Positions 17,181-64,000 of a stretch of 64,000 nt of DNA are shown one piece after another. Both the position numbers and the translations under genes were made by a program. Source of the stretch: Obrimoposthia wandeli (Eukaryota); the NCBI GenBank assembly GCA_977020255.1, contig CDROCS010005070.1, forward strand, positions 186,001 through 250,000, given 5' to 3'. Under the pieces are notes generated by a model, which worked only from the letters and a program-made list of their open reading frames with translations, was not told the DNA's origin and made no database searches. Each line of letters starts with the position of its first letter. Position 1 is the first letter of the stretch.

Positions 17181-17310
17181 AAGTTCTAGTGTATATAGAT
17201 AAGTATGTTTAACAAATAAAATCCTTATTAAATTAGCAAAAATATAAATTTTTGCTAATTTAATAAGGATTTCATTCGTTAAACATACTTATCTATATAC
17301 ACTAGAACTT
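17181..17310. repeat. Near-perfect palindrome: 63-bp arms, 4-nt loop, 2 mismatches
   Basis: 17181-17243 is the reverse complement of 17248-17310 apart from two A/G differences. Confidence 0.9.
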
Positions 17311-35600: not shown

Positions 35601-37150
35601 TGATAGGATTAGGATTTATAAAATTAATTAATTATATATATAGAAAATAGAACCCTGAAAGTAAGGTTAAAGAAAATAAAATAAATAAATGTTAAATGTT
35701 AAATGAAATAAAATTGGATAAATAATATTAGAATAATTTTAGGACCTTGAGGTCATGTTTGTTGTACAAGTATATAAGAAAGTTTAAATTATTAGAAAAG
35801 GCCCAAGAAGTTTAAAATCAAATTAGGAAAATTCATAGAAGCCTCTTACGCTGAGTTACGCTGAGAATCTGACAACTGTAAATTGTCTGGATAAGACAAT
35901 CTTGGAAAAATAGCTCAGAAATTCAATTAGCAGAAATTCCTAGAAGCTACTTACGCTGGGAATCTACCAGGTGCCGTTCGTCTGCACTTAATTCTGGTAA
36001 GTGCATATTTTCTTAAGTAACTGATTACTCTAAATTTTGTCAGTTGCTGAGAATAGATTAGCCCAATCGCAATTGGAATATCGTCAATTAACAGAAAGAA
36101 AATAAGTATTTAAACGAATTCTGAGACATTGAGGATTGATAAAACCGTCTCGCTTAAAAACAGAAAATCATCTTCACAACAGAGTAAGAAGAAAAAGAAA
36201 GGTATTAAGTTAATTTTGAGAAATAAAATCTCATTGCTAGATAGCAGAAGACGTCGAGCAACGGGAAGTCACCTCAAACCAGAAGGGTCGTAACTCGTCA
36301 CTCGAAACAACGGAAGGAAACGCCGAGACGGACAGAAACGGGAAACAACTCGGATCGTACAAATGTGAGGAGCCAAGACGGGAGACTCGAATCCGGATCC
36401 CGTGGACTTATCGCTGTATTAGGAATAGGTGAGAAGTAAATCGGAAATAAAGTCACATTAAATTTTGCATAAACTGTAACATAAAGTTATATTGACTTTC
36501 TAATTTTAACTAATAAATTAAAAAACTAAACCGAAAATTTGTCTGAATTCCATAACATTGGAATTTTATTAATCGTTATTTTCACACTAGTAAAATACGG
36601 AATTTGAAAATTTGCACTCCATCTTTATCAACTTTTACTGTACTGAGTAAAGTCAATTCAGGGAATAGAATCAAAGCAATGTCAAACCAAAAAGGAACTT
36701 GTGGAATTACTAAGTAGAGTTAAAATCAATACGTTAGGTCAGGGTCATCCTTGTTTAACCGTGTAGAGATGAGCGCAGCCGGACAAATTATTGTCGTTGT
36801 AGCACCTTTTTAGTTAAGTGCGAATTATTGTTATTGTCGTACTCTTTAGTCAAGCGTAAATAAATATATTATTTCCTACACAACAAGTTGAGTCAAACGT
36901 TCAACCCACATAAGATTAGAGCGATATGAATCCCTCCACACACCACACTACAATAAGGGAACCCTTTCAGTACCTTGTGCACACAACTCTGTAAACACCT
37001 CACACTACATTAGCATAAAACCTTCAGACTTGAGACTAAGTTAAGTAAGATAAAACTTAATTAGGCCACATCCATATGTAAGCCCTATTGCTACAGAACT
37101 CACGTTGAGGGCTTCCTTAAGAGGATCTAGTTTTGAATAGAAACCCAACA
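35601..37150 (+). mobile_element. Solo LTR B (1550 bp) of the same Gypsy LTR family
   Basis: TGATAGG...CCCAACA flanked by a perfect 4-bp TSD GTTG (35597-35600, 37151-37154). Contains GACC..GGTC hairpin, TATATAAG and G|GTAAGT; 3' end aligns with LTRs A and C. Confidence 0.8.
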
Positions 37151-39051: not shown

Positions 39052-39919
39052 TTGAATATTATTTGATTAAGTAAACAAATGCAAAGAAAAATAATAAATT
39101 TGTTGACTTTTTTATATTTACTATTAAAATTCATTGCTTATGCATTCTCAAATAAATATTATTTTCTTAATATTTTGAACATATAATTGCATTATAATTT
39201 TCAAAATTCAATATAAATAGTAAATATTCTATTTAGAATCCCAATATGCTGCAATCTAGGCCTGATTAAAGTTCATTTGGTATGGATTTTCAGGTTTTTC
39301 TTTCAGATGAGAATTTGGATAATACTTTATAAGCATCTGATTTCAATGATATTCTCTAGTAAATTTTAAATCAAAAATATGGAAGTGGAGCTACGTATTA
39401 AATATTTAACATTTAGAATTAAATTATTTCATTATTACATTTCATATTGATTTTAAATCAATCCTTATAAATGAAGCCATTAAGTTTCAGAGCAAATGCA
39501 GAGAGCATAGAATGTTAGAAATTCGGTTTTTTGTTTATCTTTGAAAACAAGTTTTTAAGCAATAAAATATTACTTTAAATGAAAGTTACAAATCTGTTTC
39601 CATTTTTTTCGGTTACAAATGAAGCTAGGTTTAGAGTTTGTGAGAACCGTATTGTGTTTTTCTTTCTCGTTCCGGAATTATTTTCGCATTTAAACATTAA
39701 ATAAACTTTTATCGACACTTTAGGTGGGAATTTTATTTCTCAGTGACAATAATTCGATACAGCCTGACTCATTTTTGGAAATATTAAAAGAAAAGCAAAT
39801 CAAAATGGATAAATCAACTTTGCACGAGTTAAAGTTTCCTGTAAAATGAGTTTCTTATTTTATATGTTTAGTTTCCTTGACAAAAAACCGTCACTACAAT
39901 ATTAGTAATTATCGATATA

Positions 39920-41218
39920 CAGGGTGTCCCATAACGAATTACCCATGTTAAAAAACATTATAAAACGATTATAAATTCGATCAAAATCTTCAAGATTTTT
40001 AACTTTGCATGGAGTATATATTTGCTACACATCCTTATTGTTTCGTTTTACTATATCAATTTTATCAATAAGATATGGCGCCAGAAACAAAACGTGCCCA
40101 AATTGTTGCATTAAAAAATGCTGGAATTTCTAACAGTGATATAGTAAAGCAGCTGGGTGTGTGTCGCAAAACTGTTTTCAACGTCTGGAAACGACATAAT
40201 GAGGAGGCTACAACATTTGAGAAACCTAATCTAGGACGAAAAAGGTCAATCCGTACAAAACGAGTTGCTGAAGCTGTGATGAAACGAATCAAGAGGGATC
40301 CCATAGGAGCATGAGAAAATCTGCAAAAGCTATGAATATCTCAAAATCCTCAATGCATATGATATTTAAAAAGGATTTACTGATGACTGCATACAAAAAG
40401 CAATCTAGGCAGTTAATTTCAGGTGCTTCCAAGAAGAAACGGCTCAACAGGGGCATAATTATGTTAGCAGAAATGAAGCGCGCCGGCGAAAAAAAATGTA
40501 TCTGGTCTGATGAGAAGATCTTTACCGTGGAGGCAGTTGCTAATAAGCAAAATGATAGAATTTACGCACGTCATTCTACAGATCTTCCCGAAGGTAGCAG
40601 AACACATTTCAAGCGACAGAAACCAGCTGGAGTCATGGTGTGGGCTGCAGTTGCTTCTGATGGGTCTAAGTCCCCTCTGATATTCGTCGATGAAGGTGTT
40701 AAGGTGAACACTAATGTATACATCAAAATTTTGGATGAAAACGTGTTACCCTGGATCACTAGCACATTTGGAGAGCATTATGTATTTACTCAAGATGGTG
40801 CACCGGCTCACACGTCTAATTTGATTCAAAAATGGTGTAAAGATCATTTTTCTGAATTCTGGGACAAGAACGTATGGCCTCCCTCAAGTCCAGACATTAA
40901 CCCAATGGACTTTTCTATTTGGTCTATCTTAGAGAGCAATGTTTCCTCTAAATCATACTCAAATGTAGCTGCTCTAAAATAAGCCCTTCTTAACACATGG
41001 TCCAAGTTTGATGAGGAGGTGGTGCGGCGATCTTGTCAATCAGTGACCACTCGTTTACAGGCTATGGTGAAAGCAAGAGGCGGCCATTTTGAGATTTGAC
41101 TATTTTAATATATTGGTAAAATATATGTAAACGTATGGTCCGAGTTTTATTATTCTATCTTAAGTTAACATTGAATAATTTAAAAAAAAACATGGGTAAG
41201 TCATTATGGGACACCCTG
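39920..41218 (+). mobile_element. Tc1/mariner superfamily, maT (DD37D) element, full length
   Basis: TA-flanked TIRs CAGGGTGTCCCATAA..TTACCCATG / CATGGGTAA..TTATGGGACACCCTG; transposase inside. Confidence 0.95.
40075..41099 (+). pseudogene. DD37D transposase with one frameshift (~40305) and one premature stop (40980-40982)
   Basis: HTH N-terminus; WSDEK, QDGAPAH, SPDINPMD with 37 residues between the 2nd and 3rd Asp. The frame continues past the TAA to ..ARGGHFEI*. Confidence 0.92.
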
Positions 41219-43039
41219 TATTATTGCATCTTCATGATATAGTAATGATATTAAATTTATTATGAAATGTCAAATACATTTGAGGATCAAAATATAAAAT
41301 GGGATAGATAATATCTTGCGGGCATCTAAAACTTAATAACTCTGTAATTTCTCCAATTCAAAATTAGAAACAAAAAATCAATAGTATAAAAAAAATTCAA
41401 GAACCTTGTTAAATCAAAGTATCCCAAATCTATTAGCTAACATGGTCTTAATACCTGTAAAAAACTATCCATTCTGTACCATAAAATTAAAACAACAACA
41501 AAATGTCTGAAAATATCATAGAAACAACAAAAGGTTTATAAGTAATTTGAACCCTTAAGCAATTAAATTAAAATCTTTTGAAATGTCTCTCTAAAATAAA
41601 ACAACATTTCAAAATTTTGTAACTTTTAAATCCAAATTATCCTCTAGACATTCTTATTAAACTGTACAACTACAGTAAGAAATCAATACTATTGAAATAA
41701 CGCTGTCGATTTTAAAGAAAATCATTCTGGAAATTATGAAATTTCTTGTAAATTTTTTTTTAGACAAATGGAAGAAAACTCCACTATCAATAAGTCGACA
41801 AACGACAAAGGGTTGAAATATTGCTTCCCTATGTTATTTTATATTGTTACTTTAGTTGTACAAATATCATAAATTTGGTGGTTTTTGTACATTTTGTACA
41901 TCACTACTGCTAATAATAATATTATTAATAATGTTAATGAGGATTATTATCGCAATGCTCATAAATTAGTTCTTCTTCATTTTCAAGAACAATTCAACCA
42001 TAGAATGACACATGAAATCCTGGTCGGGAAATTGGACTAACAAAAACCGGGCCTCAATGTAAATGCACGCATATTGTGAGTCAAGTTTTGTCGAATGTGT
42101 ACGCGGCACCGAGAACGTTACATTGAAGAGAGAAGTATGGCCAAGTAGTAGTAGGGTTAGTGGTAGCAGTATCAGCAGAAAATTCAGTAGTAGTAGAAAG
42201 AAGCTGAAAAAGATTTATTGTTATTTCGTACACTAGAAGAGAAGAATCCCATATTTTCTTGCTGTATACCCATGGATTTATGGGTAAATAGGAAAAACCA
42301 AGCCAGAAATCCAGATAAGAGGGAGTATGGAGCGTGAAAACGAAGCATACACGTGCATTGAATGCTGGGTTTTCTTAGCTTCCGAAATTGTCAAAGTGTA
42401 GCAGCCCAAAATCTGGGTCAAAACGTTGCGCAAGACTGCAGTTTTCAGAGCGCAGAAAGAAGCTTCAAATAATCGCTAGAAGAAAGTTTTAGTGACAATA
42501 AAATCGGCGGAGACCAAACATTATCATTAGGAATATTAATATTATCATTATACTGTCATTGTATTTGGAATCTTCCTCCCACACTCAGATCTCCAAATCG
42601 GATTGTCGATTTACTGCAGTGTGTCTTGTGGATCGGTCCCCTTCGTCTTGTCAGCTCGATTTGGGAACGGGAAACGACAGGCCCAGACCAAACGCTTCTC
42701 AGCCAATCAACTCAGCTGGGAGATTTCTCTAGCAGAGATCATTTGCGAATTAAATGACTTCTGCTGGCTTGTAGATGATGTTCTTCCTGCTTAGTTGCAT
42801 TTCTTCAGCAGCCTTGTGTTGTGTCGTACTGAAAAATGCAGCAGCAGTGCGGATAATAACTGTGAGTGTGTGTGTATGTGTGAGAGATTGCCTACTTGCT
42901 TATTTGACTGTTTAGAATATATCGACAGACGTGTGTGTCCGGCTGTGTATGGATGTAAACCGTCCAGCGCATTTCATGGAGCAGCCGATTATATAAAAGG
43001 TGCAAAAAGTTACTGTAACAAGCATTTTAGGTTTAAGCA

Positions 43040-46000
43040 ATGCAACAAAATTATGGCAGCGTTTCTCAGTTGGTCGCTGACAATTGTGTAACTGCCAATA
43101 ACTACTCGGTATTGTCTCTTCTCGACCAGGATCATCCACTCGACCTTTCTAAATGTGTCCGGAAATCTCTGGACGTAAACAACAATAGTAACATCGGTGC
43201 TGCTAGCGTCTCCCAGAATGCCAACATCAGCAATCCACTTCTGGAAGCGCCATTCGTCATGCAAAAACTCTTCGAAGAGCTCCTGAAACGCCGCACGGAC
43301 TGGCCCTCTCCCTACCCCGGGTCCAGCAACAGTGGCTTCTTCCCACCACTTCCACCGCCACCTCCGCTCGACCCGCGTCTCCAATGGACCTCTTTGTGGC
43401 ATCGACTGATGAACAGTGTCGCCCAGCAGCACTCGACACCGAACAGCAGCGGCAAACTACAGAACCCACAATTGGAGACTCGCCGTAGACCGACTTTGTC
43501 ACCGCGCTCCCTCACAAAACAGCGTCACAAGCGAACCAAGGTAACCGACTCGAGACTCTTGAAACGTGCTACAATCGGGGGTGAGGATCCTAGCATCGAT
43601 TTCAGCAGTTCGGCGCTGATCAACGAGGATGAAGACTACGAAAATCGGTCCATCCTGTCTCGGTCACCTTCGGTTAACGACTCCGAACTGGATGATGAAC
43701 CCAACAACCTCAACCATAATTCCAACATAAGCCAATCATCTTTGACTGCCGCCAGTTTGTGCTGTAATGATCCTAAGAAATATACATTAACTCCGGTACA
43801 TTTGCGCAAAGCCAAACTCATGTTCCTTTATACTCGTTATCCCAACTCCCAAATGCTGAAGAGCTTCTTTCCCGACATACTGTTTTACAAACAAAATACG
43901 GCTCAGTTAGTCAAATGGTTTAGTAATTTTAGGTAATTTTTACGTTTTATTAATTTGGAAATATTTTCAGTTCACGTAACCAATCAGAATTTGATTTAAA
44001 GGTTTTTTACTTTTTCAGAGAATTCTACTACAGTGAAATGGAAAAGGCTGTTCAAAGGTACTTATCCGGCGGTATCAAGTTCTCAACTGAACTCATTGTT
44101 ACTGAAGACAGTGAACTATTCAAAAATCTGATGACACACTTTAACAAAAATAGCCAAATTGAGGTCAGTACTGCAAAATTGCTTCAATTTTGTATCTTCT
44201 TGAGAATTTCAACCATTAAAATAGTCGAAAAATAACAGATCAGATAAAAATTTATGAAAATCCAATTTGATCTAAACAAATAAGAATTCATTTCAATTCA
44301 TTTTAATAATTCTGGCGAATGAGAGAATGTAAAATTTAGAAAATTAGCTGAAGAAATTAAAGAAATTTTTCAAAAGTTTTATTAAAATATACTATCACTA
44401 TTTTTTTAGAAATATAAAATTCAAAAAATTGATCAATTTTAACTTTTTCAAAATTTATGAATTTATAATGGCAGATATCAAGGTTTAGACGTTTTTTTAA
44501 ATAAACCGTATTTAAATATTTTAAAAAATCTGTAGTTGTCTATTTGATTTATTTTTAAATTTTGATTATCTTATAATTATTGTGGCCATTGAGAAGAAAT
44601 TTTATAGACTAAATAAAGTATAGTAAAAATCATTGTAAAAACAGGAAAAATATTGTCTTTATAACTTACATAATCCATGTTAGCAGCATGTACCATGTAG
44701 CAATGATATTCGGAATTATTTAAATAACGAACTTTAGCTTGATTTTACTTTTTTTTCAAACTTTACAATTGTGAATAAAAGTCTTAATAAAAATTAATTT
44801 AATTGAAATTGGTCATATAGATTGATCAATTTTATAAAATCAAATTTTAAACTGAAAAACTGGATATTGGGACTCTACTAGTATGCATTGTGCTAAGAAA
44901 TCGGATTATAAAGAAATGGTTACAAAGGTCTTTTGGGAATATTCTAAGAAATTTCTGATTGACATACTTCAAGTAAACAATACAATTATTTTCATTTCAA
45001 TGGTCGAAGAAAACAGTTCTGGACAATATTTTATTGTGTTTTCTCACGCTAAATTGTAGGAAATTATGTTGGTTTTCAAAGTTAATATTGTAACAAATTT
45101 CTATCCAACATTGAAAATAGTTTGAATACAGAAGATTAAATCTTAAATATAAAAAAGACTCTGTTTATTTGTTTTATATATGTCTTTGGATGTATTATGC
45201 AATGAATTTTCATATTAAACTTATAACTTATTTCAATGATTTTATTTTAAAAAATTAAACATTTATAAGAGAATAATCTGAAGTTTCATTTAATCTAACT
45301 CATATTAATTTTATAGGTTAATGATATTAAATTAGCGAATTTATGCTTAAAATTTGCTAAATACATCTATTAAAATAGAAAATCCGTAACAGAAAACGAT
45401 AAAAGGTCTAGTTTTAAGAATGATATAATTTAATTTTTTAGCTTATTTAAATATATGATTTTAAATAAGTCAAATATAATTTTTCTATTTGAAAATAAAA
45501 TTAACTATATTAAAAGTTATATTATTTGTTAAATAATAATAAAATAAATTTGAACTTTAAAATAAATAAAATGTAATTATATTATTAACTTTAGTTTTTT
45601 TATATGAAACAATTAGTATAACCTACACGAATAATAGTAGAAAATAATCTTTTCAAAATCATTTTCGTTTAAAGGTATGACAATTTAAGGACATTTAAAC
45701 AAAGATATTTTAATCTTTAAGTTTAAAATTTCTCATTTTTGCAAGTGTATAGAAATTATGAATGAAAAAATTATGCCAGCATTAATATTTAGGGGTATAA
45801 TATTTAAACTGTTAATAGATAAATTAAATTGTATCAACAAAGTTTTTTTACAACTCAACATAAACAGAATATACAGGGTATTTCTGAATAGCCACATACT
45901 TTTGTTTTAACATTATTTTAGATTTTTGTAAATAATGCTTTCTTTAATAATTTTAAGATAAATAAGTGATATATCTTATAGTATGTAGATTAATAAATAA

Positions 46001-47198
46001 AAATTAAACAATGTATTATCAATTTTCATAGTTAATTAATAATATGTAATTGGAAGCAATAAAGTAAATTATAAAAATTCATTGTAAAATACAACATTCA
46101 CTGAAAGAATAGATCAAACAATACATATAAGAAAAGGTTTGAATAAATTCGATTGTAACAAATGTATTTTCTGTCAAAAATAAAATATATTTATGGAATA
46201 AACTCAAGCTATGAGGTTGATAAAACATATAAAAACATTCTAAATCGTAACAATGTTTATTTGAACAAAATTAAGGAAAAATAATTGTATTTATTTAGCA
46301 TAAATTTTGTATTTATCTAAAAATATTGTCAATCAATTTATAATAAAATATAATTAACTTTTGTAAATGCTTTATATAATTAGAATTGATAAATGACTAA
46401 ATATATAAAAGAAGTTTTATCGTATTGAAAACTATATTATAGATAATAAAATTATATTTTTTCAAATTAAAGTTGTTATCAACACCCTTATTATAGATTA
46501 AAACAAAACTATGACATTTGCAAGATGATTTATAATTATATTTTTAAAATAAATTTCCAGGCTCAATAATTTTATATTTTACATACTTTGTGTATAAGTT
46601 TGATTTATTTGATCTGTCTTCGATTTATTTAATAGTTCATTTTTATCTTTTAATTGCAAATTAGGTACAAATTAAATATAAAATAGCAATAATCAAGATT
46701 TAATTGTTAAAATGTAATTCAAATTATTATAATTTTTATAATTAATAATAACATATTTTATTTAAAGCCTAAAATGTATAAAAACATTATAACCTTAATT
46801 TGTATTTCTGAATCCAGGTCCCAAAGGAGTTTATGATGTGTGTTCAAGTGACCCTACGTGAGTTCTATGAGGCCATTTCTGTGGGCAAGAATCTTCACCA
46901 ATCCTGGAAAAAACCTATCTACAAGAATATCGCCAAACTCGATCAACCTCTACCGGAGTTCTTTCGAGATCTGTCCTGGATGTTAGAGCTAGCTCGTGAT
47001 GACTCTAATAGTGGTAGCAACAACGGGAACAGCAACAACGGGAACAGCAACAACGGCAGTAATAACAACACCAACAACAACAATGTTTTGCTTATGGCCA
47101 GTCACCCGCATCATCATCACCACCACCAGCAACAGCAGCAGCATCAACTGCATGCTCCAGCTATGCATCCTTCCATCCTTCATCATCAGAGCTGCTAG
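43040..47198 (+). CDS. pros: Prospero/Prox homeo-prospero transcription factor; exons 43040-43932, 44019-44163, 46818-47198 (472 aa if 43040 is the start)
   Basis: [31 protein letters not shown]|[25 protein letters not shown]|[32 protein letters not shown]; GT-AG introns preserve frame (1419 nt). Upstream exons cannot be excluded. Confidence 0.95.
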
Positions 47199-52758: not shown

Positions 52759-53275
52759 TGTTGGGGTTTCTATACGAAACTTGGTATAGATCCTCTTGAG
52801 TGCGGAGGGCCCCAACGTGAGTTCGATTAGAAGCAGGTCTTAAAGTTGGTCGTGGCCTACTTAGTGTTATTATTGCCTATCTCTTGTACTATCTGAAGGT
52901 ATTTGATTAGATGTCTCTTAGTCTGAAGGGTGCAAAAACAACTTGTTCTAATGTAGGAAATTGTTTATTTGAAATTCACGTAACTAACACAACGATACGT
53001 TTATGTACGTATTTCTAAAAAGTATGATAAAATTCCTAAAGGACTTCTGTAAGTCTCTACAAGAAGTGGGGATGAACCACGTATCGATTTTACGTTCAGG
53101 TGATTAAGCTTTTAGGTTTATTCTTCTTACTTAGGTTGGTTAATCTATAACGCAACTCTCTTAAAATTCTTCGCTCCTACTTCTGATCTTTAGATAAAGT
53201 TTCTTGATCCCTTAACTCTATCTGTTGTGTGTTTGACCCCAAATTGTCCACTGTGAACAATGGGTCTCCTAAAAC

Positions 53276-53674
53276 CTAATTGTCAAGATGACAATGAAAA
53301 ACTTACTCCTAATTGTCAACTATGGACAATGAACGAGCCGAATTGTCAGCTAGGGACAATGAGTCTTACCGAATTGTCAACTAGGGACAATGAGTATTTA
53401 TCCGAATTGTCAACTAGGGACAATGAATGAACCTAATTGTCAGCTAGGGACAATGAATCTTACGGGCAAAAAGTCTGGGTATGATTCCTAATTGTCGCTG
53501 GGGACAATGAATAAATGGCTGATCTTAATTACCAACTAGGGGCAATGATTTTGTTAAAGAGTCGGAAATCCTAATTGCCAGCTAGGGGCAATGAATATGT
53601 TTAAAATATGTTAAACAACCTAATTGCCAACAAGGGGCAATGAATTTATCCTAATTGCCAACTAGGGGCAATGA
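53276..53674 (-). repeat. Array of ~11 short palindromic units (ATTGTC-N7-GACAAT / ATTGCC-N7-GGCAAT) with variable spacers, inside the LTR
   Basis: Units begin near 53276, 53309, 53339, 53370, 53403, 53432, 53487, 53525, 53571, 53619, 53651. Confidence 0.9.
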
Positions 53675-53798
53675 ACGGTTTTAGTTGGTGTTCTTACCAG
53701 TTACTGCGACTAGTGGGACGTCCGATGCAGGATCCGTAGGTCTTTCGGAATCTTCTTCGAAGCAGCGATTATTACTTGTGAGAGGTTTGAGTACACGC

Positions 53799-54220
53799 TT
53801 GAATACACTTTGACTTTGACTTTTTGGACACTTGAATACACTTTGACTTTGACTTTTTGGATACTAAACAATTATTTTTATTCACAGCAATTATTTTTAT
53901 TCACCTTGAATACACTTTGACTTTGACTTTTTGGATATTAAACAATTATTTTTATTCACAGCAATTATTTTTATTCACCTTGAATACACTTTGACTTTGA
54001 CTTTTTGGACACTAAACAATTATTTTTATTCACCTTGAATACACTTTGACTTTGACTTTTTGGACACTAAAACAATTATTTTTATTCACAGCAATTATTT
54101 TTATTCACCTTGAATACACTTTGACTTTGACTTTTTGGACACTAAACAATTATTTTTATTCACCTTGAATACACTTTGACTTTGACTTTTTGGACACTAA
54201 AACAATTATTTTTATTCACC
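53799..54220 (-). repeat. Tandem array (7 cores; units 33-75 bp) inside the LTR
   Basis: TTGAATACACTTTGACTTTGACTTTTTGGA core repeated 7 times with variable CAATTATTTTTATTCAC sub-repeats. Confidence 0.9.
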
Positions 54221-54230
54221 TGAAATCACT

Positions 54231-54331
54231 ACTTACCGAGAACTCAATTGTTCGATTTGTGGTCCAGTCGACTCTGGCTGTTGAATCCCGTATTTGTGTT
54301 TTTGAATTGAATGAACCTATCTCCTTATATA
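54231..54331 (-). promoter_or_regulatory. LTR promoter TATA box (54331-54324) and downstream 5' splice donor G|GTAAGT (54237|54236)
   Basis: TATATAAG then G|GTAAGT occur in the same order in LTR A (13376-13369; 12970) and LTR B (35771-35778; 35997). Confidence 0.65.
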
Positions 54332-55001
54332 AAGGCAGTCTTGTCAATCAAATGACAGCTGATTCGTATCGCTGGAAATTTCTTCTTACTTAAGATCTAA
54401 AAATCAATAAATCCTATTGCACTTAAAATGTGCTTACCTTGACGTCTCTTGATTGACGTGACTAATTGATTTCCTAATTTAATGGCTTCTCCTTAATTAA
54501 TCTTAACAATTGTCCTTTTTGGGTTAATTAATTTAACTTTTATACATTTTCACATTATACACGACCTTCGTGGTCCTCCTAATTTTTACCCTAAATTCCA
54601 CTAATTTTAATTCTAACTAAAATTAATATTTTAATTTAATTTTCAACCTTGTTTTCAAGGATTTTTATTTTAGTATTTAATCGACTAAATATTTAAATTT
54701 CTTAATTCTCAAACCTAACATACCTCGGGGGTTCCAAAAAAGTTACGTCCCCGGAACGTATCGATTTTACTTAATAAGCCTTTGGCTGTTGATTTTAGGT
54801 TCATCCCTACAAAATCAATCATTCAACTTCAACAAACATGCCCAAAAAATTTTCCTCAAAATCCCGGTTTTTAGTGGGAGACATAATATATAATTTGGAG
54901 CAAGTCTCAAACCATACATTATTACTTATACACAACTAAAAATTTACACACAAAATTACATGCATAACTAAGGGTTAGGAAGGAAAGAAGGGAGGAAAGG
55001 A

Positions 55002-55532
55002 TCAATTGTCATATGTCAGGTCAATTGTAATTGTCGGCTGGTTCCGACTGGCCAGGTAGCGCAGAACCTGCTCCAGGGGTAGGTCGGGAAAGGACGGACT
55101 GTCCCCGTTGTACAGGTGTAGTTGTTGGCTCCGGGTTAGGTGTGGACTCTCGATGAACAGGTCGAAATGCTGCCCGTTTATGGCGTGATTTTCTATCCAG
55201 TGCCGTCTGGCCTGGAACCACGAGTGGCAGTCTCGACTAGACCGCCATCTCTCGCGGATGCCCAGTTGTGTGTCGCGCCGGCGTGCGAGACACACGTAGC
55301 ATTGGCAATGTATGCCACCAATGCAGCTGGCAGGCGATCGGGTGCCCTTGTGCCTTCCACGGCTCTGGAGCGTCCATTTGGCAAAGGGTGTCCGGCACAG
55401 TGGACATGTGATATGGCCGGGGGGTCGAGCCTTGGTCCACAAATAGAGGCACTCCTCGTGGAATTTGTGACGGCAGCCGACAGGGGATGCTGATACCGCC
55501 CAAATCTTCTCCATGCATACAGAACACTTCAT
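55002..55532 (-). CDS. RING-H2 protein 3 with extra Cys motif and C-terminal extension (176 aa from MKCSVC)
   Basis: CSVC..CRHKFHEEC..W..CPLC, then CIGGIHCQCYVC; acceptor TTTTCTTATGCAG directly before the ATG. Confidence 0.85.
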   Translation of the reverse strand: MKCSVCMEKIWAVSASPVGCRHKFHEECLYLWTKARPPGHITCPLCRTPFAKWTLQSRGRHKGTRSPASCIGGIHCQCYVCLARRRDTQLGIRERWRSSRDCHSWFQARRHWIENHAINGQHFDLFIESPHLTRSQQLHLYNGDSPSFPDLPLEQVLRYLASRNQPTITIDLTYDN

Positions 55533-55872
55533 CTGCATAAGAAAACAACTCCTTTCAATTTGGGGTTCACTGTTCTCATTGTTAATTTAAATTTTATTTC
55601 AAAACGAATCCTTAGTTATCTAATCCTACCGAGTTTTGTTTCGATTTTAGGCATGTTTACGCATTCACACTAAGCATAAAAATTGTCTTTTTTAGAAATT
55701 CAGTATAATAATTACAATTTCAGTTAAACATCATACATAAAAATGGTAATGGTCAATTTACAGTTCACAAGATTATATAATTATGATTACAATTATGGTA
55801 GCTAATTTATCGCGGTATGCGATACACAGGGTAGTTCATGATATCACGTTCAAGTCAGAAAGTTACCTTCGA

Positions 55873-56178
55873 TTATTGTTGGGGATTGGGCTGGCCTGTG
55901 CTTCGCTCCTCCACGCAGAACGAGCACCAGCAATCGCAGATGGTTTTCCAGCAGTGTACGATGGGTACCACTGCTTGGAGGCTGTCCTGGTTGTACACGT
56001 AGTGTACTGAGAAGGTCGCTCTGCACATCGGGCAGGTTGGGAAGTCGAGGGGATTGTTGCTGTTTGCGATGGGGATCCACGTCTCGAGGCATTCGACGTG
56101 GAAAAGGTGGTCGCAGTTGTTGGGCTTGGTGTAGAAGTCCACGATGCTCTCGTAGCAGATGGAACATTCTCCAGACAT
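55873..56178 (-). CDS. RING-H2 protein 2 (101 aa)
   Basis: CSIC..CDHLFHVEC..W..CPMC, then CWKTICDCWCSFC. Confidence 0.9.
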   Translation of the reverse strand: MSGECSICYESIVDFYTKPNNCDHLFHVECLETWIPIANSNNPLDFPTCPMCRATFSVHYVYNQDSLQAVVPIVHCWKTICDCWCSFCVEERSTGQPNPQQ

Positions 56179-56238: not shown

Positions 56239-56538
56239 TTACACAAAAGTGGTCTGATTTTGTCGATCTGACAAACAGTAATAACACCAACACTCTCCGA
56301 AATTCTTCCAACAGAATACCACCTGTACATATACATCCTCTTGGTTGGGTTCTAACATGATGAATCTTGCGAATTGTCTTCTGCATACAGGGCAACAAGG
56401 GTATGTTGGATGTCCGAACTGTCCATAAGTTCTGATCCATGTCGATAAACATTCCTCGTGGTGTAAATGGCTGCAGGTTTCGGGTCTTGTTCTTCGTTCG
56501 GTTAGATCTTCCAAACATATTGGGCATTCTTCGGACAT
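56239..56538 (-). CDS. RING-H2 protein 1 (99 aa from MSEECPIC)
   Basis: CPIC..CSHLHHEEC..W..CPVC, then CWKNFGECWCYYC. Confidence 0.9.
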   Translation of the reverse strand: MSEECPICLEDLTERRTRPETCSHLHHEECLSTWIRTYGQFGHPTYPCCPVCRRQFARFIMLEPNQEDVYVQVVFCWKNFGECWCYYCLSDRQNQTTFV

Positions 56539-56661: not shown

Positions 56662-57711
56662 TCATATCTTGATGGGAGGCGGAGGTAAGGGTCGCAATTC
56701 CACTTCCTCCATGATGGGTGTGTCACAGCATCGCAATCTTTCGCATTTTCGTCGTATTCCTGGGCATACTTGACTGCCTTTTACGCACACGATTGTCAAT
56801 AGAACCACTGCTGTTGACACTACGGCCATTCCAATTAGGGCATTGACCGCTGTTATTCCGCTGTCTGATGATTTATAATCATACTTCATTTTGTTGTTTG
56901 TCGGTTCGAATGACATTTCCATGGGTTTTGATCGGTTTCCATGTATTATGTCCGATTTTCTAAAAATTCGGGGATTTGGGTGTTTTGTTTCTGATGGAAC
57001 AGGTATTATTATTTTGGATTGGAAATGATGTTTGGGATCTAGTGGGATCGTTCCCCTCACTCTTGTCCTCTTAATAATTGTACTTTGGTTTCTGGGATTG
57101 AGCTCTTTTTCTTTCGCTTCTGTCTTTGTTCTGATCACTGTCGGTTTTTTGGAATGTCGTTTACTTTCGTTTACTTTTGCCTTCTTTCTGACTAGGATTG
57201 GCCTTTTGGGAATGATTTTCCTGGGTTTGATACTTATACCGGATCTACGAAATCGACGGTTCTGGTATCTTAGAGTTATGTAGAATATTTCACCTGTTAT
57301 TATCATGATTATGGTCGAGGTCTCTGTAGTATTACTGGAAATTCGATTACACAGACATTCTGTGTTAAAATGTGGTACTAACATTTGGCTTTGGATTTCG
57401 AATCTGATTCCGCCATCTGGGTTGGGACACATTACTGTTACTCTGTCGGTCTCTAGCAATCTGAAAAATATCCTAACGGAATTCCATACGGCTTTACGTC
57501 GTCTACCTGTGATCATAATCCTGTCGACAATTTTCCAGATGCGTTCATCTCTAGGCAATATTAATGACTTTGTTCGGATACTTTGGATAATCCGCTTCCT
57601 CTTCGATATTGTTATCCGTAGGTATAACACTTTTTCATGATACAATAATATTAAATTGTAATCGGGTGTATTTTGGTCGATTTTTATTCTGACCTGTCGG
57701 ATGACATACAA
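56662..57711 (-). CDS. Basic ectodomain + C-terminal TM + Cys/Pro-rich tail; probably the C-terminal part of the preceding ORF
   Basis: 349-aa open frame, open upstream to ~57780; sequons NTT/NES/NQS/NRS; RFRR; TM ITAVNALIGMAVVSTAVVLLTIVCV; tail CC..PLPPPP. Confidence 0.75.
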   Translation of the reverse strand: MYVIRQVRIKIDQNTPDYNLILLYHEKVLYLRITISKRKRIIQSIRTKSLILPRDERIWKIVDRIMITGRRRKAVWNSVRIFFRLLETDRVTVMCPNPDGGIRFEIQSQMLVPHFNTECLCNRISSNTTETSTIIMIITGEIFYITLRYQNRRFRRSGISIKPRKIIPKRPILVRKKAKVNESKRHSKKPTVIRTKTEAKEKELNPRNQSTIIKRTRVRGTIPLDPKHHFQSKIIIPVPSETKHPNPRIFRKSDIIHGNRSKPMEMSFEPTNNKMKYDYKSSDSGITAVNALIGMAVVSTAVVLLTIVCVKGSQVCPGIRRKCERLRCCDTPIMEEVELRPLPPPPIKI

Positions 57712-57772
57712 TTTCTGATCGATATTGTCGGTTGCTGACGTCTGTAGATGAATGTCTACTACGTGATTTGTT

Positions 57773-60700
57773 TTAGAAGGGGGTTTCTATGTATACTGCC
57801 CGTATTACGTCTTGTCTCCATTTACTGATCATGATCTCATAACTAGCCTTGGTAGTGGTGATTTGTATGATCAGCATGATTCCTATGATCGTTCGATTCC
57901 TAAACTCAGGAACTTCAATGAAACAAGTCAAATTACTCATATAGTACGGTCTTTCCTCGATATGTTCATATATCGTTGGCTGGTACTCTGGTGCTGGTTC
58001 ATCTAGAAATGGTGGTCTTGGTATAATTGTGTTGAATTTTTGTAAGTTCATTTGACCTGTTCGTCTTGCGAGATCATGACGTTTCTTTTTTGATCTCGAC
58101 TCTATCTTTGTACAACAAAACAAGATGAGTAATATTAATATTATAAATCCAATGATCAGTGCGAGTATTGGATTAATCAATTCTAGAATACCGTAACGTA
58201 CTGCTGGTATTCCTTTACTCTTGATGGTTAATATTTTAAATTTGTGTGCACTTTGGTTGGATATGTCACTGAGAAGTACTATTTTAGTTTGTCCAAATGT
58301 GTAGTCTTCACATGTGACAACATCAATTCCATAATGTCTATTAAGTGTTTTCATTTCGGTCGCTGGAACTATACATATCCGTCCTGGGCATCCTTTTACA
58401 CACATGATCATTACAGCTTTACTGTAGGATGTCTTGATTATTTCTAGGGTGTTGTCTAGATTTCTCAAATGTAAATTATATTCGGATAGTGTCATCAATT
58501 CGGCTTTACTGGTTGGCATGGCTTGCAGTACCAATCCAATTACTACTCCATAAATCAATCCTTGTGCAACGGTGCACAGGGCCTTGACTGACCTTTTGCA
58601 AAGGGTTTTAATTATCAATCGTTTAAGAGATATCTGTTTCTGATTGGATCGTTTTGTTGTCTGTCGTTGTTTTGACATCTCCTCGATTCCATCTCTTCCG
58701 ATAATCAACTGTACCGGTTTACCTTGTATCGTCAACTTTCCCAATCCATTTTTGGCGGACAAGCATGTTTTATGTCCTTCCATCGTTTCAATTATTACTC
58801 TCTTACTTCCATACTCACGTGTTTTGATGACATCGCCGTCGAATATATACGTTGGTCCTTTTGTATCAGCATCTTTTTGTATTTCCTTTACAACTCGTTT
58901 TCTTCGCTTGCATCCGGCGAATGTTGTTGATATTCGGTCAAGTGTGCGCTGTCGGTCAGCTTCGTAATCTATTCGAAATTGATTCAGTATTCTGTTTTGT
59001 GGGTAAAATATCGCTTCATTTACTATGTTGTCCTCGATCCTTTCGTCTAGATACACAAGCACTTTGTTCGTTGGTCCATTTGGTCTTTTCATCTTTACAA
59101 ACTGAAATCTTTTACTGTCGGTTCTCATAGATCGAAGACATTTTCGGATGATCCACACATCAATTAGTCCTAACAACACTAATAGCATCATCAGTGCCGG
59201 CGTATGGTACTGTATGGTGTAGTTGTGGATATCGATGAACCAGGAACTATTTCCGTGGTTGGAGCCTATCTCCTGTGCTCCCGTTATCGGCATTAAACAA
59301 CTTAACAAGCCTATCGCTAGCAATCTTTGGTATTGAAAGCTGGGCACTGTTGTTGTAGCTTCATTTGTTTCTCGTTGTTGTTTCCTCTTTTCGGTGTATT
59401 TCTCTATTTCTCGAACGAGTAACGGTTTGAATTCCGTATTCGGTCTATTCTGTTTGATGTAGACCATCGCTTCTTCTGGCGTGTGACCATGGTACTCTAC
59501 CAACAAGGATACACCTATGGTAGGCGCTAACATTGTACCTTTTTTCTGATATATCAGAACGCCGTTTCCTTCTGTGACTTCAGCTTGGATGGTTTGAGTC
59601 AATTTCGTCAGATGTTGTTGTGCATCGTTTATTTCTCGATTGGAAGCATGTATGTATCGAGTGGTGTCGTCTTCAGTATTTTGACACAGACTAATTATCT
59701 CGTTTCCGACTTCAACAATGTTGATTACTCGGTTGATACTGTGGAACTTTAATCCAGCAGTATCTATATCTCCTGGATGACATAAAAATACTTTTGGCAT
59801 TATCTGTGTAATTTTGTCGACTCCGGCTAAGAATAACCCGGTCAACGATAATGCTTGGAGGAAATTCTTTTCCTTTGGGTCCTCAGGAATGTCGTCCATC
59901 CGTCTTTGTTCTTGCAACAGAAGTTGGTAATTTGCCAACTGTCCCAAAAAATTAAGATTTGGGTTTGCAATACTTCTTCTCTCCTGTAGGTATTTTAGCG
60001 CTTCTAGTACCTGCATTCGTCTAGTCTTTATTAGGTATGCTAATACTAGAGTTGCTGATCGAGAAATTCCTTTCTGACAATGTACCAACACTTTTCCTTG
60101 GTTCCGGAGTTCTCTGTGAAGTATTTCGTTTGTTTCTACGAACCATTCGAGAAGATTAGCGTCCATTGAGTCTTTTACTCTTAATGTCATAGCTCTGATC
60201 GTCTGATATTGTGATTTGTGATTCATTGTAACGTTGATCACGTATGTTATCCCTTGTTCCAACAGTTTCTTTTCATCTGTTGCATCCTCCACATTTCCGA
60301 GGTATAACTTACCTGGAATGATCTCACTCATTGGTGGCATTAATTCTGACTCTTCAAGTTTTAGTCTTTCTAATCTCTTCTCTATTTGTTCGTCGATGTT
60401 GGATAGTTTCGCCAGTTTCTTTCCTCTCAGCATTCGTATTGCTGGAGAGATATTCATCTTTGTCTCTGATGTCTGTTCCTTTGTTGAGTCTTCTTCCGAC
60501 TCGGTCTCCTCTGCAGATTTAATTCGTCTTTCTTGTATATTCTGTTTCACGAATTCTATGTTTTGTCTTTTTCTGCTCTCTTTAGCGAATTCAATCTCCA
60601 TGGTTCTTCCGAATCGCTCTATTATGTTATCTTCGGATTCTGTTGATTCTGTATCGTTACTCTCCGGTTCGCTGTCTTCACTAGACTCGCTCGAAGGGTA

Positions 60701-61687
60701 TTCTGGTATGTCTGTCTGGACTGAAATTAATGAAGGGGTTAGAATAATTGGATTGATTTCCCCTTCGTATTTGTGAATCGGATACGGTATTACACTATCT
60801 TTAAGTATTTCAACTTGGAACTGTGCTCCATAGCACATGACAATTGTTTCTAATTTACCCATGATGGACAATCCATCAAAATAGGTAACATTCAGCTTAG
60901 ATATCGGTGTCTTCGCATAATTAATTAAGTTTACTCGTATCTCAGTTGATGACGGCCATCGATTTTTTAGTAAAATTATAATTTCGTCGTTTATCGATGT
61001 GATCACACTTGGCGCGGATGATACTATTTCAGCATGATATTTTGGCTGGATTGAGTTGGTCACTTGTTCTCGGATCATATTGATTCTTAGTGGTTTTTTA
61101 TTTTTAGCTTCCCACTTCCGGTATCCGCTGTCAATGCGTAACTCTGCCGTTGCTTTGATGATTTTATTGTTAGCCACTTCCGGTTGGGTCGGCGAATGAA
61201 ATCCTTCTATTACGCTCAACCTTACAGATACTTCCGTTTGATCTGTATCTAACCGGTGAGATTCTGGTATACAACATACAATTGTCTTTCCGTCAAAGTA
61301 TTTGGTGTCCATCTGACAAATTATCTTTTCAGTGTCAGCGTCGATTAAATGGACTCTCATGATATCTCTTTTCCCATGTGAATTACGTAATACCATTATT
61401 ACATCGTGGTATTCTTGTTTGAGTCTTTTTGGTGTACCATGCAGTATGTGACCACCGGCCGGTTCCTTCTCTTCCTGACTGGCTAGTCCTGCTTCAGTAC
61501 TGTCATAGTTCTGCCATGCAACTATGTTTGGTGTCAATGTGATTTCGATTATCACTTTCTCAGTCGTAAACACATTGGAATTTTGATAAAGTGCTGCGAC
61601 TAATGTATTTCCGTCGTAGTATGACACTCTAAGTTCGCACAGAAATTCGTTTGTCAGTGCATCTTTCACAATGACTTCTTTAGCCAC
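57773..61687 (-). CDS. 1304-aa cargo ORF: Ig/IPT-like repeats, dual-specificity phosphatase, pseudophosphatase, multiple signal/TM segments
   Basis: YFDG/YYDG repeats; SEIIPGKLYLGN..D..VLVHCQKGISRSATLVLAYLI..NPNLNFLGQL (DSP); second DSP-like fold with VLIYQKKGTMLA. The called start is a GTG, and the frame overlaps the integrase end. Confidence 0.88.
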   Translation of the reverse strand: MAKEVIVKDALTNEFLCELRVSYYDGNTLVAALYQNSNVFTTEKVIIEITLTPNIVAWQNYDSTEAGLASQEEKEPAGGHILHGTPKRLKQEYHDVIMVLRNSHGKRDIMRVHLIDADTEKIICQMDTKYFDGKTIVCCIPESHRLDTDQTEVSVRLSVIEGFHSPTQPEVANNKIIKATAELRIDSGYRKWEAKNKKPLRINMIREQVTNSIQPKYHAEIVSSAPSVITSINDEIIILLKNRWPSSTEIRVNLINYAKTPISKLNVTYFDGLSIMGKLETIVMCYGAQFQVEILKDSVIPYPIHKYEGEINPIILTPSLISVQTDIPEYPSSESSEDSEPESNDTESTESEDNIIERFGRTMEIEFAKESRKRQNIEFVKQNIQERRIKSAEETESEEDSTKEQTSETKMNISPAIRMLRGKKLAKLSNIDEQIEKRLERLKLEESELMPPMSEIIPGKLYLGNVEDATDEKKLLEQGITYVINVTMNHKSQYQTIRAMTLRVKDSMDANLLEWFVETNEILHRELRNQGKVLVHCQKGISRSATLVLAYLIKTRRMQVLEALKYLQERRSIANPNLNFLGQLANYQLLLQEQRRMDDIPEDPKEKNFLQALSLTGLFLAGVDKITQIMPKVFLCHPGDIDTAGLKFHSINRVINIVEVGNEIISLCQNTEDDTTRYIHASNREINDAQQHLTKLTQTIQAEVTEGNGVLIYQKKGTMLAPTIGVSLLVEYHGHTPEEAMVYIKQNRPNTEFKPLLVREIEKYTEKRKQQRETNEATTTVPSFQYQRLLAIGLLSCLMPITGAQEIGSNHGNSSWFIDIHNYTIQYHTPALMMLLVLLGLIDVWIIRKCLRSMRTDSKRFQFVKMKRPNGPTNKVLVYLDERIEDNIVNEAIFYPQNRILNQFRIDYEADRQRTLDRISTTFAGCKRRKRVVKEIQKDADTKGPTYIFDGDVIKTREYGSKRVIIETMEGHKTCLSAKNGLGKLTIQGKPVQLIIGRDGIEEMSKQRQTTKRSNQKQISLKRLIIKTLCKRSVKALCTVAQGLIYGVVIGLVLQAMPTSKAELMTLSEYNLHLRNLDNTLEIIKTSYSKAVMIMCVKGCPGRICIVPATEMKTLNRHYGIDVVTCEDYTFGQTKIVLLSDISNQSAHKFKILTIKSKGIPAVRYGILELINPILALIIGFIILILLILFCCTKIESRSKKKRHDLARRTGQMNLQKFNTIIPRPPFLDEPAPEYQPTIYEHIEERPYYMSNLTCFIEVPEFRNRTIIGIMLIIQITTTKASYEIMISKWRQDVIRAVYIETPF

Positions 61688-63057
61688 ATCTGTCGGTTGT
61701 GTTTTTCGAAAACAACTATTATCTCTTCGTCTTCTTCTAATATCTCTTGTGGTGCGATGTGTCGGATTACTTCCTTTTCCTCTTGGTACTTCATTCTGAG
61801 CATACCAATTCTCGCTGGTTTTTCCTTGCTACCACTCGTCATCATGTTTATGTAGTTCCGATCACTTACCATTCGTGTAAGTTTAATGGTATTGGTATTC
61901 GATTTCGATTTCTGTGATCTTAACTCATATCGTGACGCATTATCTTTATTTGGTACTAATTTGCATCGATTTGCATGTACAATCATCGGTTCCTTGTTCC
62001 GATTCTCTTCGTTGATTACTTTCAAATTTGTTGAGGTTGTCTGGATCACCTTGTATGGTCCTTTGTATGGTCTATGAAGTTTAAACGATAGACCTGGTTC
62101 GATGACTGGATAAAATATCATCACTTGATCTCCGACTCTAAATTCATGTGGTTTTGCTTTTTTGTCGTATTGTTCCTTGTAACCTTCTTGATTGAATTTC
62201 AACTTCAATCCGGCTTTGGTCCAAGCATCTTGTAACCTTTCCTTCATAACGACAATGTATTGTTCAGTTTCTAGATACTGAGATGTTGGCTCGGTCCACT
62301 CCAGATCCATTGGCATATTGTTCTGTCTGAGATACATCAGATAGAATGGTGTGTGACCCGTCGCCTCTCGAACTGAATTCCTGTAAGCATATAAACATGA
62401 AGGTAAATATTTATCCCAATCCTCTTGCTTGTCGGAGCAATAGGATTGTACCATCATACATAAAGTTTTATTAAACCTTTCTACCAGACCATCTGTCTGT
62501 GGGTGATATGGTGAAGTTTGCAACTTCATGATTCCGAATATCTTCGATACTGCTTTTATGACTTCTCCAGTGAAGTTCTTACCTTGATCTGTTAACAACT
62601 TTCTAGGCACTCCGTATCGAAATATTATCTCTTCCACTAAGATTTGCGCTATTGTTTCAGCTTTCTGGTTCTGCATGGGATATGCTTCTACCCATCTCGT
62701 CATGTAGTCCGTAAATACTATGACGTACTTGTTTCCTTTACTTGATTCTCTCAATGGTCCCAATATATCCATCGCTGTGAATTCCATTGGTGCCAAGGGA
62801 ACTGGCATTGGTTTCAGTGGAACTTTAGTACGAGTTCCGGTGTCTTTTCTGGTTAAACATACTTTACATTGTTTACACCATTGTTTTATGTCGTCTTCCA
62901 TACCATCCCAATGGTACTTCTCTTTGATTCTGGCTATTGTCTTTCGCCCTGACAGATGTCCTCCTAGTGTTCCGTCGTGATACTGGATCATCACTGCTGT
63001 TTTCAATGACTTCGGAATTACTACTACTATCTTTCCGACATTATTGACAATATACAA
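61666..63057 (-). CDS. Gypsy integrase (HHCC, DDE, GPY/F) with a C-terminal extension; frameshifted from RNase H
   Basis: HDGTLGGH..CKQC, AMDILG, LTDQG, DGLVERFNKTL, PYKGPYKV. Confidence 0.95.
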   Translation of the reverse strand: MYIVNNVGKIVVVIPKSLKTAVMIQYHDGTLGGHLSGRKTIARIKEKYHWDGMEDDIKQWCKQCKVCLTRKDTGTRTKVPLKPMPVPLAPMEFTAMDILGPLRESSKGNKYVIVFTDYMTRWVEAYPMQNQKAETIAQILVEEIIFRYGVPRKLLTDQGKNFTGEVIKAVSKIFGIMKLQTSPYHPQTDGLVERFNKTLCMMVQSYCSDKQEDWDKYLPSCLYAYRNSVREATGHTPFYLMYLRQNNMPMDLEWTEPTSQYLETEQYIVVMKERLQDAWTKAGLKLKFNQEGYKEQYDKKAKPHEFRVGDQVMIFYPVIEPGLSFKLHRPYKGPYKVIQTTSTNLKVINEENRNKEPMIVHANRCKLVPNKDNASRYELRSQKSKSNTNTIKLTRMVSDRNYINMMTSGSKEKPARIGMLRMKYQEEKEVIRHIAPQEILEEDEEIIVVFEKHNRQMWLKKSL

Positions 63058-63068
63058 GATTCCTTCTT

Positions 63069-64000
63069 TTATCGAGTATTTTTCGTCATTTCATCGTTTA
63101 GATCTCCTTTCACCAACAATTCTTTGATTAGACTCAGTTCTTCATCTTCTGTCTGTTCTTTGATGATTTCTTTGTCTATTTTACCCGTCTTTAGCAAAAT
63201 CGTCAGTAGATTTGCTTCTCCTTTTTGGTCATTGGCTCCATCTTCTTCTGGAATTATGTTTCCTTTTTCATCTACATTTGTCAATCTCGATAAACAATCT
63301 GCGTTGCCATTCGACTTTCCGGTTCTATAACGGATTTCTAGATCGAATTCGGCCAATTTTAGAAACCATCTGTTTAATCTACTCATCTCATCTCTATGTT
63401 TATATAAGAACTGTAGTGGTTTGTGATCTGTATACAGGAATACTTTTTGTCCTAGCAAATAGTGTCTGTACTGTCTACATGAATACACTATGGCTAGACA
63501 TTCCTTTTCGATAACAGAGTATCCTCTTTCGGCTCTGTTTAATCCTCTACTTGCATACTCAATGACGTGTTCTCTTCCTTCGTCATCCTCTTGTCCCAAT
63601 ACTGCTCCTACAGCATAGTTACTTGCATCTGTCATGAGTATGAACTGTCGGTTTATATCTGGAAACGCTAATATCGGTGTTTTTATCAATCTTTCTTTTA
63701 AATGCTCGAACGCTTGTTGGGCTTCTTCTCCCCATATGAACTTCTCATCTTTTCTCGTCAACTTTCTCAATGGTGTTGCTATATCTGAAAAATGTTCAAC
63801 AAATCGTCTATAATAATTCGCAAGACCTAAAAAACTCTGTATCTCCTTAACAGTCTTTGGTGCTAAATGCGCTTTTACTTTCTCGATCTTTGCCGGATCA
63901 GGTCGAATGCCTTCTTTCGATACTATATGTCCTAAAAATGTTACTCGCTCTTTAGCCCATTCGCATTTTGTAGGTTTAACTTTTAATTTAGCGTTTTCCA
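63069..64000 (-). CDS. Gypsy Pol: RT C-terminus/connection and RNase H (5' truncated by window)
   Basis: Open frame from the window end: KCEWAKERVTFLGHIVSKEGIRPDP..SFLGLANYYRRFV..TDASNYAVGAVL..EKECLAIV..YTDHKPL..NADCLSR. Confidence 0.96.
   Translation of the reverse strand, partial: ENAKLKVKPTKCEWAKERVTFLGHIVSKEGIRPDPAKIEKVKAHLAPKTVKEIQSFLGLANYYRRFVEHFSDIATPLRKLTRKDEKFIWGEEAQQAFEHLKERLIKTPILAFPDINRQFILMTDASNYAVGAVLGQEDDEGREHVIEYASRGLNRAERGYSVIEKECLAIVYSCRQYRHYLLGQKVFLYTDHKPLQFLYKHRDEMSRLNRWFLKLAEFDLEIRYRTGKSNGNADCLSRLTNVDEKGNIIPEEDGANDQKGEANLLTILLKTGKIDKEIIKEQTEDEELSLIKELLVKGDLNDEMTKNTR

Follow-up and report, generated by a model that had tools for sequence, protein, structure and literature searches.

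The 64,000-nt stretch of Obrimoposthia wandeli DNA analyzed here (contig CDROCS010005070.1, positions 186,001 to 250,000 of the forward strand, assembly GCA_977020255.1; hereafter the window) ends at its right side in the 3' part of a Ty3/gypsy retrotransposon, which lies on the minus strand and whose 5' part extends past position 64,000. The coding strand of the element is A-rich, and its GC content is above that of the neighboring sequence. Four reading frames of the element, A to D, are very probably parts of one gene for a single polyprotein, separated by three breaks that are not programmed. In this polyprotein the Pol enzymes would be followed by a cytosolic cargo with a phosphatase and then by a series of membrane proteins.

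Read from stop to stop on the minus strand, frame A (63998-63069, 309 aa, open at the window end) contained the end of the reverse transcriptase (RT) region and RNase H, and frame B (63090-61666, 474 aa) contained the integrase, a linker and the first half of a β repeat. Frame C (61828-57773) comprised 1351 aa and frame D (57786-56662) 374 aa; the 1304 and 349 aa reported for the latter two by a first-pass annotation were, by hand count, their lengths from a GTG and a TTG codon. Adjoining frames were each offset by one base, and the direction of the offset was not uniform. The annotation had attributed the breaks to three homopolymer runs, and all three were confirmed at its positions on the minus strand: an A5 run at 63083-63079 in the RNase H-integrase linker (break 1, frames A/B), an A5 run at 61706-61702 within β repeat 1 (break 2, frames B/C) and a C5 run at 57783-57779 (break 3, frames C/D), the last being the sole C5 in the 7.3-kb coding region. 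The stop-free overlaps between the frames were 19 nt (A/B), 160 nt (B/C) and 11 nt (C/D). The A/B and C/D overlaps each held exactly one run of at least four bases, namely the run at the break, and there were four such runs in the B/C overlap, including two A5 runs. A 3-periodic Markov coding model, trained on sequence at least 250 nt from the breaks, concentrated 90% of the probability of a switch in 63090-63070, 61717-61680 and 57786-57773, and the second of these intervals singled out the A5 run at 61706-61702. On held-out sequence the model chose the correct frame in 35 of 36 test windows of frames A to C and chose frame D in 14/14 overlapping test windows. The chance of finding a run of at least five bases in each of the 19-, 38- and 11-nt intervals was 0.061 x 0.137 x 0.030 = 2.5e-4. 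The joined coding path (63998-56665) counted 2,444.7 codons within the window and contained zero premature stops. Since the element is open at the window end, about 2,445 codons is a minimum, which agrees with the product of more than 2,400 aa that had been proposed.

The Pol part was identified by Pfam matches of frame A to RT_RNaseH (E 7.5e-39, residues 114-218) and of frame B to Integrase_H2C2 (7.4e-19) and rve (7.6e-13). RVT_1 was not detected by Pfam in the window, which includes just the last ~90 residues upstream of RNase H; the main part of the RT, the protease and any gag or env would be located beyond position 64,000. Pfam, motif reading and the invariant alignment columns together showed that the integrase has the HHCC (H2C2) finger, the DDE core and a GPY/F-type C-terminal module, and the order of RNase H followed by integrase is that of the RT-RH-IN arrangement of Ty3/gypsy elements. 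A consensus-like splice donor was observed at 61869 (minus strand), right after the integrase C-terminal domain.

Each junction carried its own evidence for a continuous product, and the three joins proposed by the annotation were all upheld. At break 1 the relatives described below read through from RNase H to integrase, and the distance from the RNase H motif to the integrase His was 108.67 codons in the window, compared with 91-110 aa in those relatives, 8/11, in which both motifs were found. At break 2 the two halves of one β repeat lie in different frames. Three all-β repeats of ~95 aa were located upstream of the phosphatase domains, at about 61773-61460, 61453-61145 and 61033-60743 (minus strand), and repeats 2 and 3 aligned with each other at z 7.0. 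In repeat 1, the first half matched repeats 2 and 3 only in frame B (z 3.3 and 3.1) and the second half only in frame C; reading repeat 1 through the break with an X raised its score from 64 to 85 against repeat 2 and from 37 to 55 against repeat 3. At break 3 the third signal-like segment of frame C (57845-57925, minus strand) is followed by just 23 residues before the stop, and frame D is an ectodomain, stalk and transmembrane segment (TM) without a leader of its own. The single-polyprotein reading is favored at this break because the relatives keep signal peptide, ectodomain, stalk and TM in one frame.

The repeats had been labeled IPT, and their presence and all-β character were borne out while that identity was not. 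The Atlas comparison placed them at 0.90 to TIG clusters (155/256 features, at a low recognition of 1703), which leaves an IPT/TIG-like identity as a lead only. No Pfam TIG match at E 10 and no profile match in the Protein Data Bank (PDB) were found, and the structural model, with seven strands at a predicted local distance difference test (pLDDT) score of 57, gave a best fold-search Z of 6.3, to unrelated β barrels. The order of the phosphatase domains was as proposed, a dual-specificity phosphatase (DSP) followed by a degenerate copy. Domain 1 (59924-60307, minus strand; Pfam DSPc E 8.8e-40) has an intact HCxxGxxRS loop at 60082 and is active-looking as judged from its sequence; its best solved relative was DUSP10 (E 2.6e-24), and the best solved matches were MAP-kinase phosphatases (DUSP10, DUSP1 and DUSP4). 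The intact P-loop and these matches make it similar to the catalytic domains of the DUSP/MKP proteins, but it differs from them in that no rhodanese or KIM region was detected by Pfam, in its tandem arrangement with a dead copy and in its location inside a retroelement polyprotein. Domain 2 (59405-59788, minus strand) lacks the catalytic Cys and Arg, matched DSPc below the cut-off (E 1.4e-6) and shares 21% identity with domain 1 over 136 aa (E 2e-4), by which sequence features it is classed as a pseudo-phosphatase.

Hydropathy showed three signal-like segments alternating with three TMs in the remaining part of the product. Membrane unit 1 (59147-59356, minus strand) consisted of a signal-like segment at 59356-59276, an ectodomain of ~24 aa and a TM at 59203-59147, and was followed by ~190 aa of putative cytosolic sequence, for which no Atlas match was found. 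By eye this stretch looked RRM-like, and the assignment was rejected as it had no support from Pfam (E 10) or Atlas. Membrane unit 2 (58112-58582, minus strand) consisted of a signal-like segment at 58582-58502, a Cys-containing ectodomain of ~110 aa and a TM at 58168-58112, followed by a Pro/Tyr-rich tail; it did not match the fibronectin type III (FN3) profile of the relatives, with 50/100 shuffles as good. Frame D (56662-57786, minus strand) supplied a β-rich ectodomain, a basic Ser/Thr/Pro-rich stalk, a TM at 56838-56782 and a Pro-rich tail. The composition of its stalk resembles that of the relatives' stalks; no Pfam family and no PDB profile match at E 10 were found for frame D. The three units thus share the layout that the annotation wrote as (SP-ecto-TM)3, for signal peptide, ectodomain and TM, but they are not sequence repeats of each other, and the ectodomain of the first is just ~24 residues long. 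Of the whole proposed architecture, RT-RH-IN-(IPT)3-DSP-pseudoDSP-(SP-ecto-TM)3, the RNase H, the integrase, three β repeats, the DSP and its dead copy and three such units were found; the RT is represented by the ~90 residues before RNase H that the window contains, and the IPT label was not retained.

Relatives were found with the integrase, whose search gave 939 matches, the best 120 of which were listed, in proteins of 831-2,370 aa. Ten of the 120 were set apart by 48-59% identity, compared with at most 44% for the others, and together with the window integrase they formed an 11-member clade (support 99/94), with the protein P0011 as sister (support 100/98). The tree, which was rooted at the midpoint and had no named references, included 41 of 121 sequences (the window, the top 30 matches and 10 others picked by hand, leaving out 80 listed matches). 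The clade may correspond to a named MolGy/PolGy or Repbase group that was defined on RT alone. In each of the ten relatives, one protein comprised RNase H sequence, integrase and a tail, the latter 200-1,147 aa long, and the relatives have protease and RT. Tails longer than 200 aa were present in 11/110 of the other listed matches, in several of them because the RT comes after the integrase. Most tails of the clade read as a signal peptide, repeats, a basic Ser/Thr/Pro stalk, a TM and a short tail. A TM was found near the end in 8/10 relatives; P0006 lacked one, and the P0002 sequence is ended by an in-frame stop. A DNA scan without length bias gave 24 integrase loci, two of which belong to the clade as judged from their identity (59% and 56%, with the other 22 at 24-41%), and both of these had the RNase H end, the integrase and the tail in one frame. 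Gypsy integrase loci (L001 1-4655, L002 1-1891 and also L003-L021) occurred within records of bacterial metagenome-assembled genomes, the two clade loci among them; they are presumably contaminating animal DNA.

A common repeat of ~90 aa occurred 16 times in 7/10 relatives, and structural modeling indicated that it has the FN3 fold. The model folded as tandem FN3 domains (pLDDT 84.5) with a Foldseek E of 7.7e-7 to fibronectin, and structure comparison gave Z 10.1 with a root-mean-square deviation (rmsd) of 7.8 over 167 residues, and Z 9.3 (rmsd 2.7) over 81. The repeat had 11 weak profile matches in the PDB, 10 of them to proteins that we take to be FN3-bearing. In P0009 an FN3 membrane unit stands in frame before the protease (held-out match, independent E-value 6.5e-7), which indicates that such membrane units do occur inside polyproteins. 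P0003, P0005 and P0006 carry one or more aspartic-protease-like domains after the integrase, and P0005 carries ankyrin repeats as well, so that cargo appears to be freely swapped at this position. Two extra aspartic-protease-like domains were also observed before the RT of P0001. A C-terminal [ST]-x-[VIL] sequence, presumably a class I PDZ-binding motif, was found in 6/10 clade proteins (P0001, P0003, P0005, P0007, P0008 and P0009), including two pairs of close kin, compared with 6/110 others; frame D of the window has no such end. In the sister P0011 an F-type fusion protein precedes the protease in frame, detected by PF24664 at E 8.7e-75. No F- or gB-type env family of Pfam was found in frames C or D at E 10 or 0.1, the region upstream of pol lying outside the window.

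Several results weigh against the single-polyprotein reading or its comparison with the FN3 tails. No copy of the window's own family was found, and the cargo (repeats, DSP-flanking regions and membrane units) was without a homologue in searches that covered proteins up to 2,365 aa: none of 7,435 candidates of near length was homologous to the repeats region, none of 6,392 shorter candidates to the membrane region, and no homologue of the repeats was present among 1.84 billion representative proteins. Without a twin that reads through, breaks 2 and 3 depend on analogy and internal evidence. The length range of the integrase search, given above, favors fused forms. The signal peptides were judged by hydropathy and their cleavage sites by eye. 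Moreover, frames C and D gave no hmmsearch match to the clade FN3 profile among 509 six-frame pieces, and again none after the profile was enlarged to 19 repeats; hhalign put frame D first of 47 windows in both rounds, but at a probability of 1.9-3.6%, with 1/150 and 2/200 shuffles as good. Profile comparison is thus no more than suggestive of an FN3 identity of the frame D ectodomain.

Among the possible origins of the breaks, to which we assigned weights by judgement and not by computation, errors of the assembly consensus, each a single-base slip, are somewhat favored, because the three offsets are each of one base, all lie at runs, and are accompanied by zero premature stops and intact catalytic motifs. 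Two results count against this preference. The probability of meeting no stop was 0.04-0.61 for an assumed 20 to 3 substitutions per indel, which makes the no-stop argument weak, and a deficit of long runs, looked for in 52.7 kb of host sequence, was not found (P 0.15), so there was no independent sign of poor assembly. Both also fit a second and more tentative explanation, in which the polyprotein is the same and the slips are real, the copy being a young dead or non-autonomous one in which reverse transcription or DNA replication slipped. Slippage too prefers homopolymer runs, and the exons of the host Prospero homeo-domain read unbroken. Three indels with no stop and no bigger gap in 7.3 kb would nevertheless be an unusual spectrum of decay, and the sole decayed relative at the DNA level had two in-frame stops and zero frameshifts in 4.65 kb (n=1). 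Error or mutation had been ranked above recoding by the annotation, and this ranking stands.

Programmed recoding, in which frameshifting by the ribosome or slippage of the polymerase at one or more of the runs would set the proportions of Pol, cargo and membrane proteins, is improbable. Of the 22 A-runs of at least five bases, only the two at breaks 1 and 2 follow a CG (raw p 0.004, or ~0.09 for any shared dinucleotide by hand count, and post hoc), but a systematic base-calling error would account for such a common context just as well. Downstream of break 3 there is a modest hairpin (z -2.49, 2/200 shuffles, one of three tests), whereas the folds after breaks 1 and 2 were unremarkable (z -1.67 and +0.97, with pseudoknots outside the model). 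No break had a canonical slippery heptamer (X XXY YYZ) within 45 nt, recoding would have to shift the frame both ways, and the relatives read through the RNase H-integrase and signal-ectodomain junctions. We give marginally less credence still to the idea that frames B, C and D are separate genes with their own starts or spliced sub-genomic RNAs, as for the env of insect gypsy elements. The three RING open reading frames (ORFs) downstream are indeed separate, each with its own ATG, and a loose GT-AG scan around the breaks gave 2, 3 and 9 frame-compatible pairs, as counts uncorrected for chance. The first ATGs of the frames, however, lie inside domains (residue 34 of B in the zinc finger, residue 145 of C in repeat 2 and residue 91 of D in the ectodomain), splicing at break 2 would remove or truncate a half repeat for which two tests indicated coding, and signal peptide 3 would head only 23 residues while frame D would be leaderless.

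The planarian giant gypsy element Burro/GYPSM1, which carries cargo and env inside a polyprotein of 4,873-5,140 aa and is possibly a provirus (PMC6431247), is a precedent for cargo within a gypsy polyprotein. Burro elements exceed 30 kb and have env in frame between Gag and protease. Cargo in one polyprotein with Pol was seen directly in 10/10 relatives and is predicted for the window element, which by description would work like Burro in this respect. Both have host-like regulatory cargo in one huge Ty3/gypsy polyprotein together with accessory ORFs, with RING-type, ubiquitin-related and ankyrin motifs described for Burro; within the clade, P0005 has ankyrin repeats after the integrase, and the F-type fusion protein of the sister P0011 precedes its protease in frame, as in Burro (PMC6431247). 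The cargo named in the accessible part of that paper includes BIR, MATH, BCL2, SUMO-like, Smc, ankyrin and env, with no mention there of a phosphatase, FN3 or an array of signal peptides and TMs (PMC6431247). Conversely, no BIR, MATH, BCL2 or ankyrin cargo of the Burro type was found by Pfam in the part of the element inside the window. The errantiviruses, which are Ty3/gypsy elements with an F- or gB-type fusogen env as an ORF of its own, are similar in having Pol beside an encoded membrane protein with signal peptide, ectodomain and TM (PMC13524379). They differ in that the fusogen is a separate ORF, whereas here the membrane proteins are fused to Pol, are small, follow the integrase and are FN3-like in the relatives; the main text of that paper contains none of the words "fibronectin", "phosphatase" and "Burro" (PMC13524379). 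In the bdelloid elements Juno, Vesta and TelKA, non-env cargo and small TM proteins likewise come after pol and vary with the family (GDSL esterase, DEDDy nuclease, env-like), but the cargo is in a separate ORF3, and the accessible text lacks the words "RING", "fused" and "in-frame" (PMC5408684). Nothing on an architecture of Pol-fused cargo was present in the accessible parts of PMC11410931, PMC8532177 and PMC8556966. In the literature covered, which leaves out most subscription journals and Repbase, no description was found of post-integrase receptor-like cargo, Pol-fused FN3 membrane proteins or a DUSP in an element with long terminal repeats (LTRs).

The functional element would have one long frame running from Pol past the integrase into the cytosolic cargo and then through three internal units of signal peptide, ectodomain and TM. 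By established principles, the element's own protease would free the RT, RNase H, integrase and cytosolic cargo, each internal signal sequence would direct the chain to the endoplasmic reticulum, where signal peptidase would release a type I membrane protein, and each TM would bring the chain back to the cytosol, as in polyproteins of the flavivirus type. More weakly, the phosphatase, the separate RING ligases and the receptor-like proteins may dampen host kinase signaling or aid spread between cells; they may also interfere with host ubiquitin signaling and act at the cell surface. We also put forward, as a speculation that we consider more doubtful than probable, that the elements form an undescribed animal Ty3/gypsy clade, in which internal signal peptides of the Pol polyprotein release, in a flavivirus-like way, an array of receptor mimics built from FN3 domains, of which many have PDZ-binding tails. 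The family of the window would have added a MAP-kinase phosphatase, a pseudo-phosphatase decoy and three RING ligases, giving a kit with which the cell surface is remodeled and stress or immune signaling is silenced, possibly with contact-mediated spread without a classical fusogen. Such a kit, if true, would be large-virus-style equipment carried by a retrotransposon.

The three slips themselves are probably mundane, but annotation would split the gene into four orphans and miss a clade that fuses FN3 type I membrane proteins to Pol. Provided that they are produced, these proteins would represent a second route by which a retrotransposon reaches the cell surface and interferes with host signaling, besides the capture of env, and the "tinkerer" idea raised for Burro becomes testable by single domains, namely the phosphatase, the RING ligases and the receptor-like proteins.

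Downstream of frame D on the minus strand lie the three RING-H2 ORFs, at 56239-56538 (ORF 1, 99 aa; Pfam zf-RING_2 5.6e-9), 55873-56178 (ORF 2, 101 aa; 7.7e-9) and 55002-55538 (ORF 3, 178 aa; 2.5e-7). ORFs 1 and 2 share a frame and are separated by one TAA and 60 nt (56616-55873, minus strand). The G+C content at third codon positions was 0.77 in ORF 2 and 0.66 in ORF 3, compared with 0.30-0.40 in the remaining element, which suggests later capture or another mode of expression for these two.

A probable 3' LTR was located at 52759-54720 (minus strand), with a 3' end in CA at 52759, a tentative 5' edge and two internal tandem arrays, one of ~30-nt units (53239-53679) and the other of 55-, 75- and 130-nt units (53798-54254). 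Its last ~150 nt aligned with two other fragments of the window that share the terminus (scores 93 and 80, compared with a best of 36 in 300 shuffles). These fragments, at 12278-12688 (minus strand) and 36707-37150 (plus strand), are 70% identical over 454 nt, and each stands beside decayed sequence resembling DNA polymerase B. When the full length of the probable LTR was searched by blastn at E 1e-3, no further copy was detected in the window. The probable 3' LTR is alone inside the window, the 5' LTR lying outside, and a clear polypurine tract was not seen in the window.

The host is an animal, as indicated by a Prospero/Prox-like gene at 43037-47198 (plus strand), in which the homeo-prospero domain extends over three spliced exons. 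Decayed pieces resembling protein-primed DNA polymerase B were observed at 9340-12082 and 33714-34995 (plus strand), with Pfam DNA_pol_B_2 matches below the cut-off (E 5e-4 and 1.6e-3); we take them to be Polinton/Maverick-like. A Tc1/mariner-like transposase piece at 40272-40982 (plus strand; DDE_3 E 1.7e-6) was flanked by 33-nt inverted repeats at 39917-39949 and 41189-41221, 1,239 nt apart. In addition, a 63-nt inverted repeat with 97% complementarity and a 4-nt loop was present at 17181-17310.

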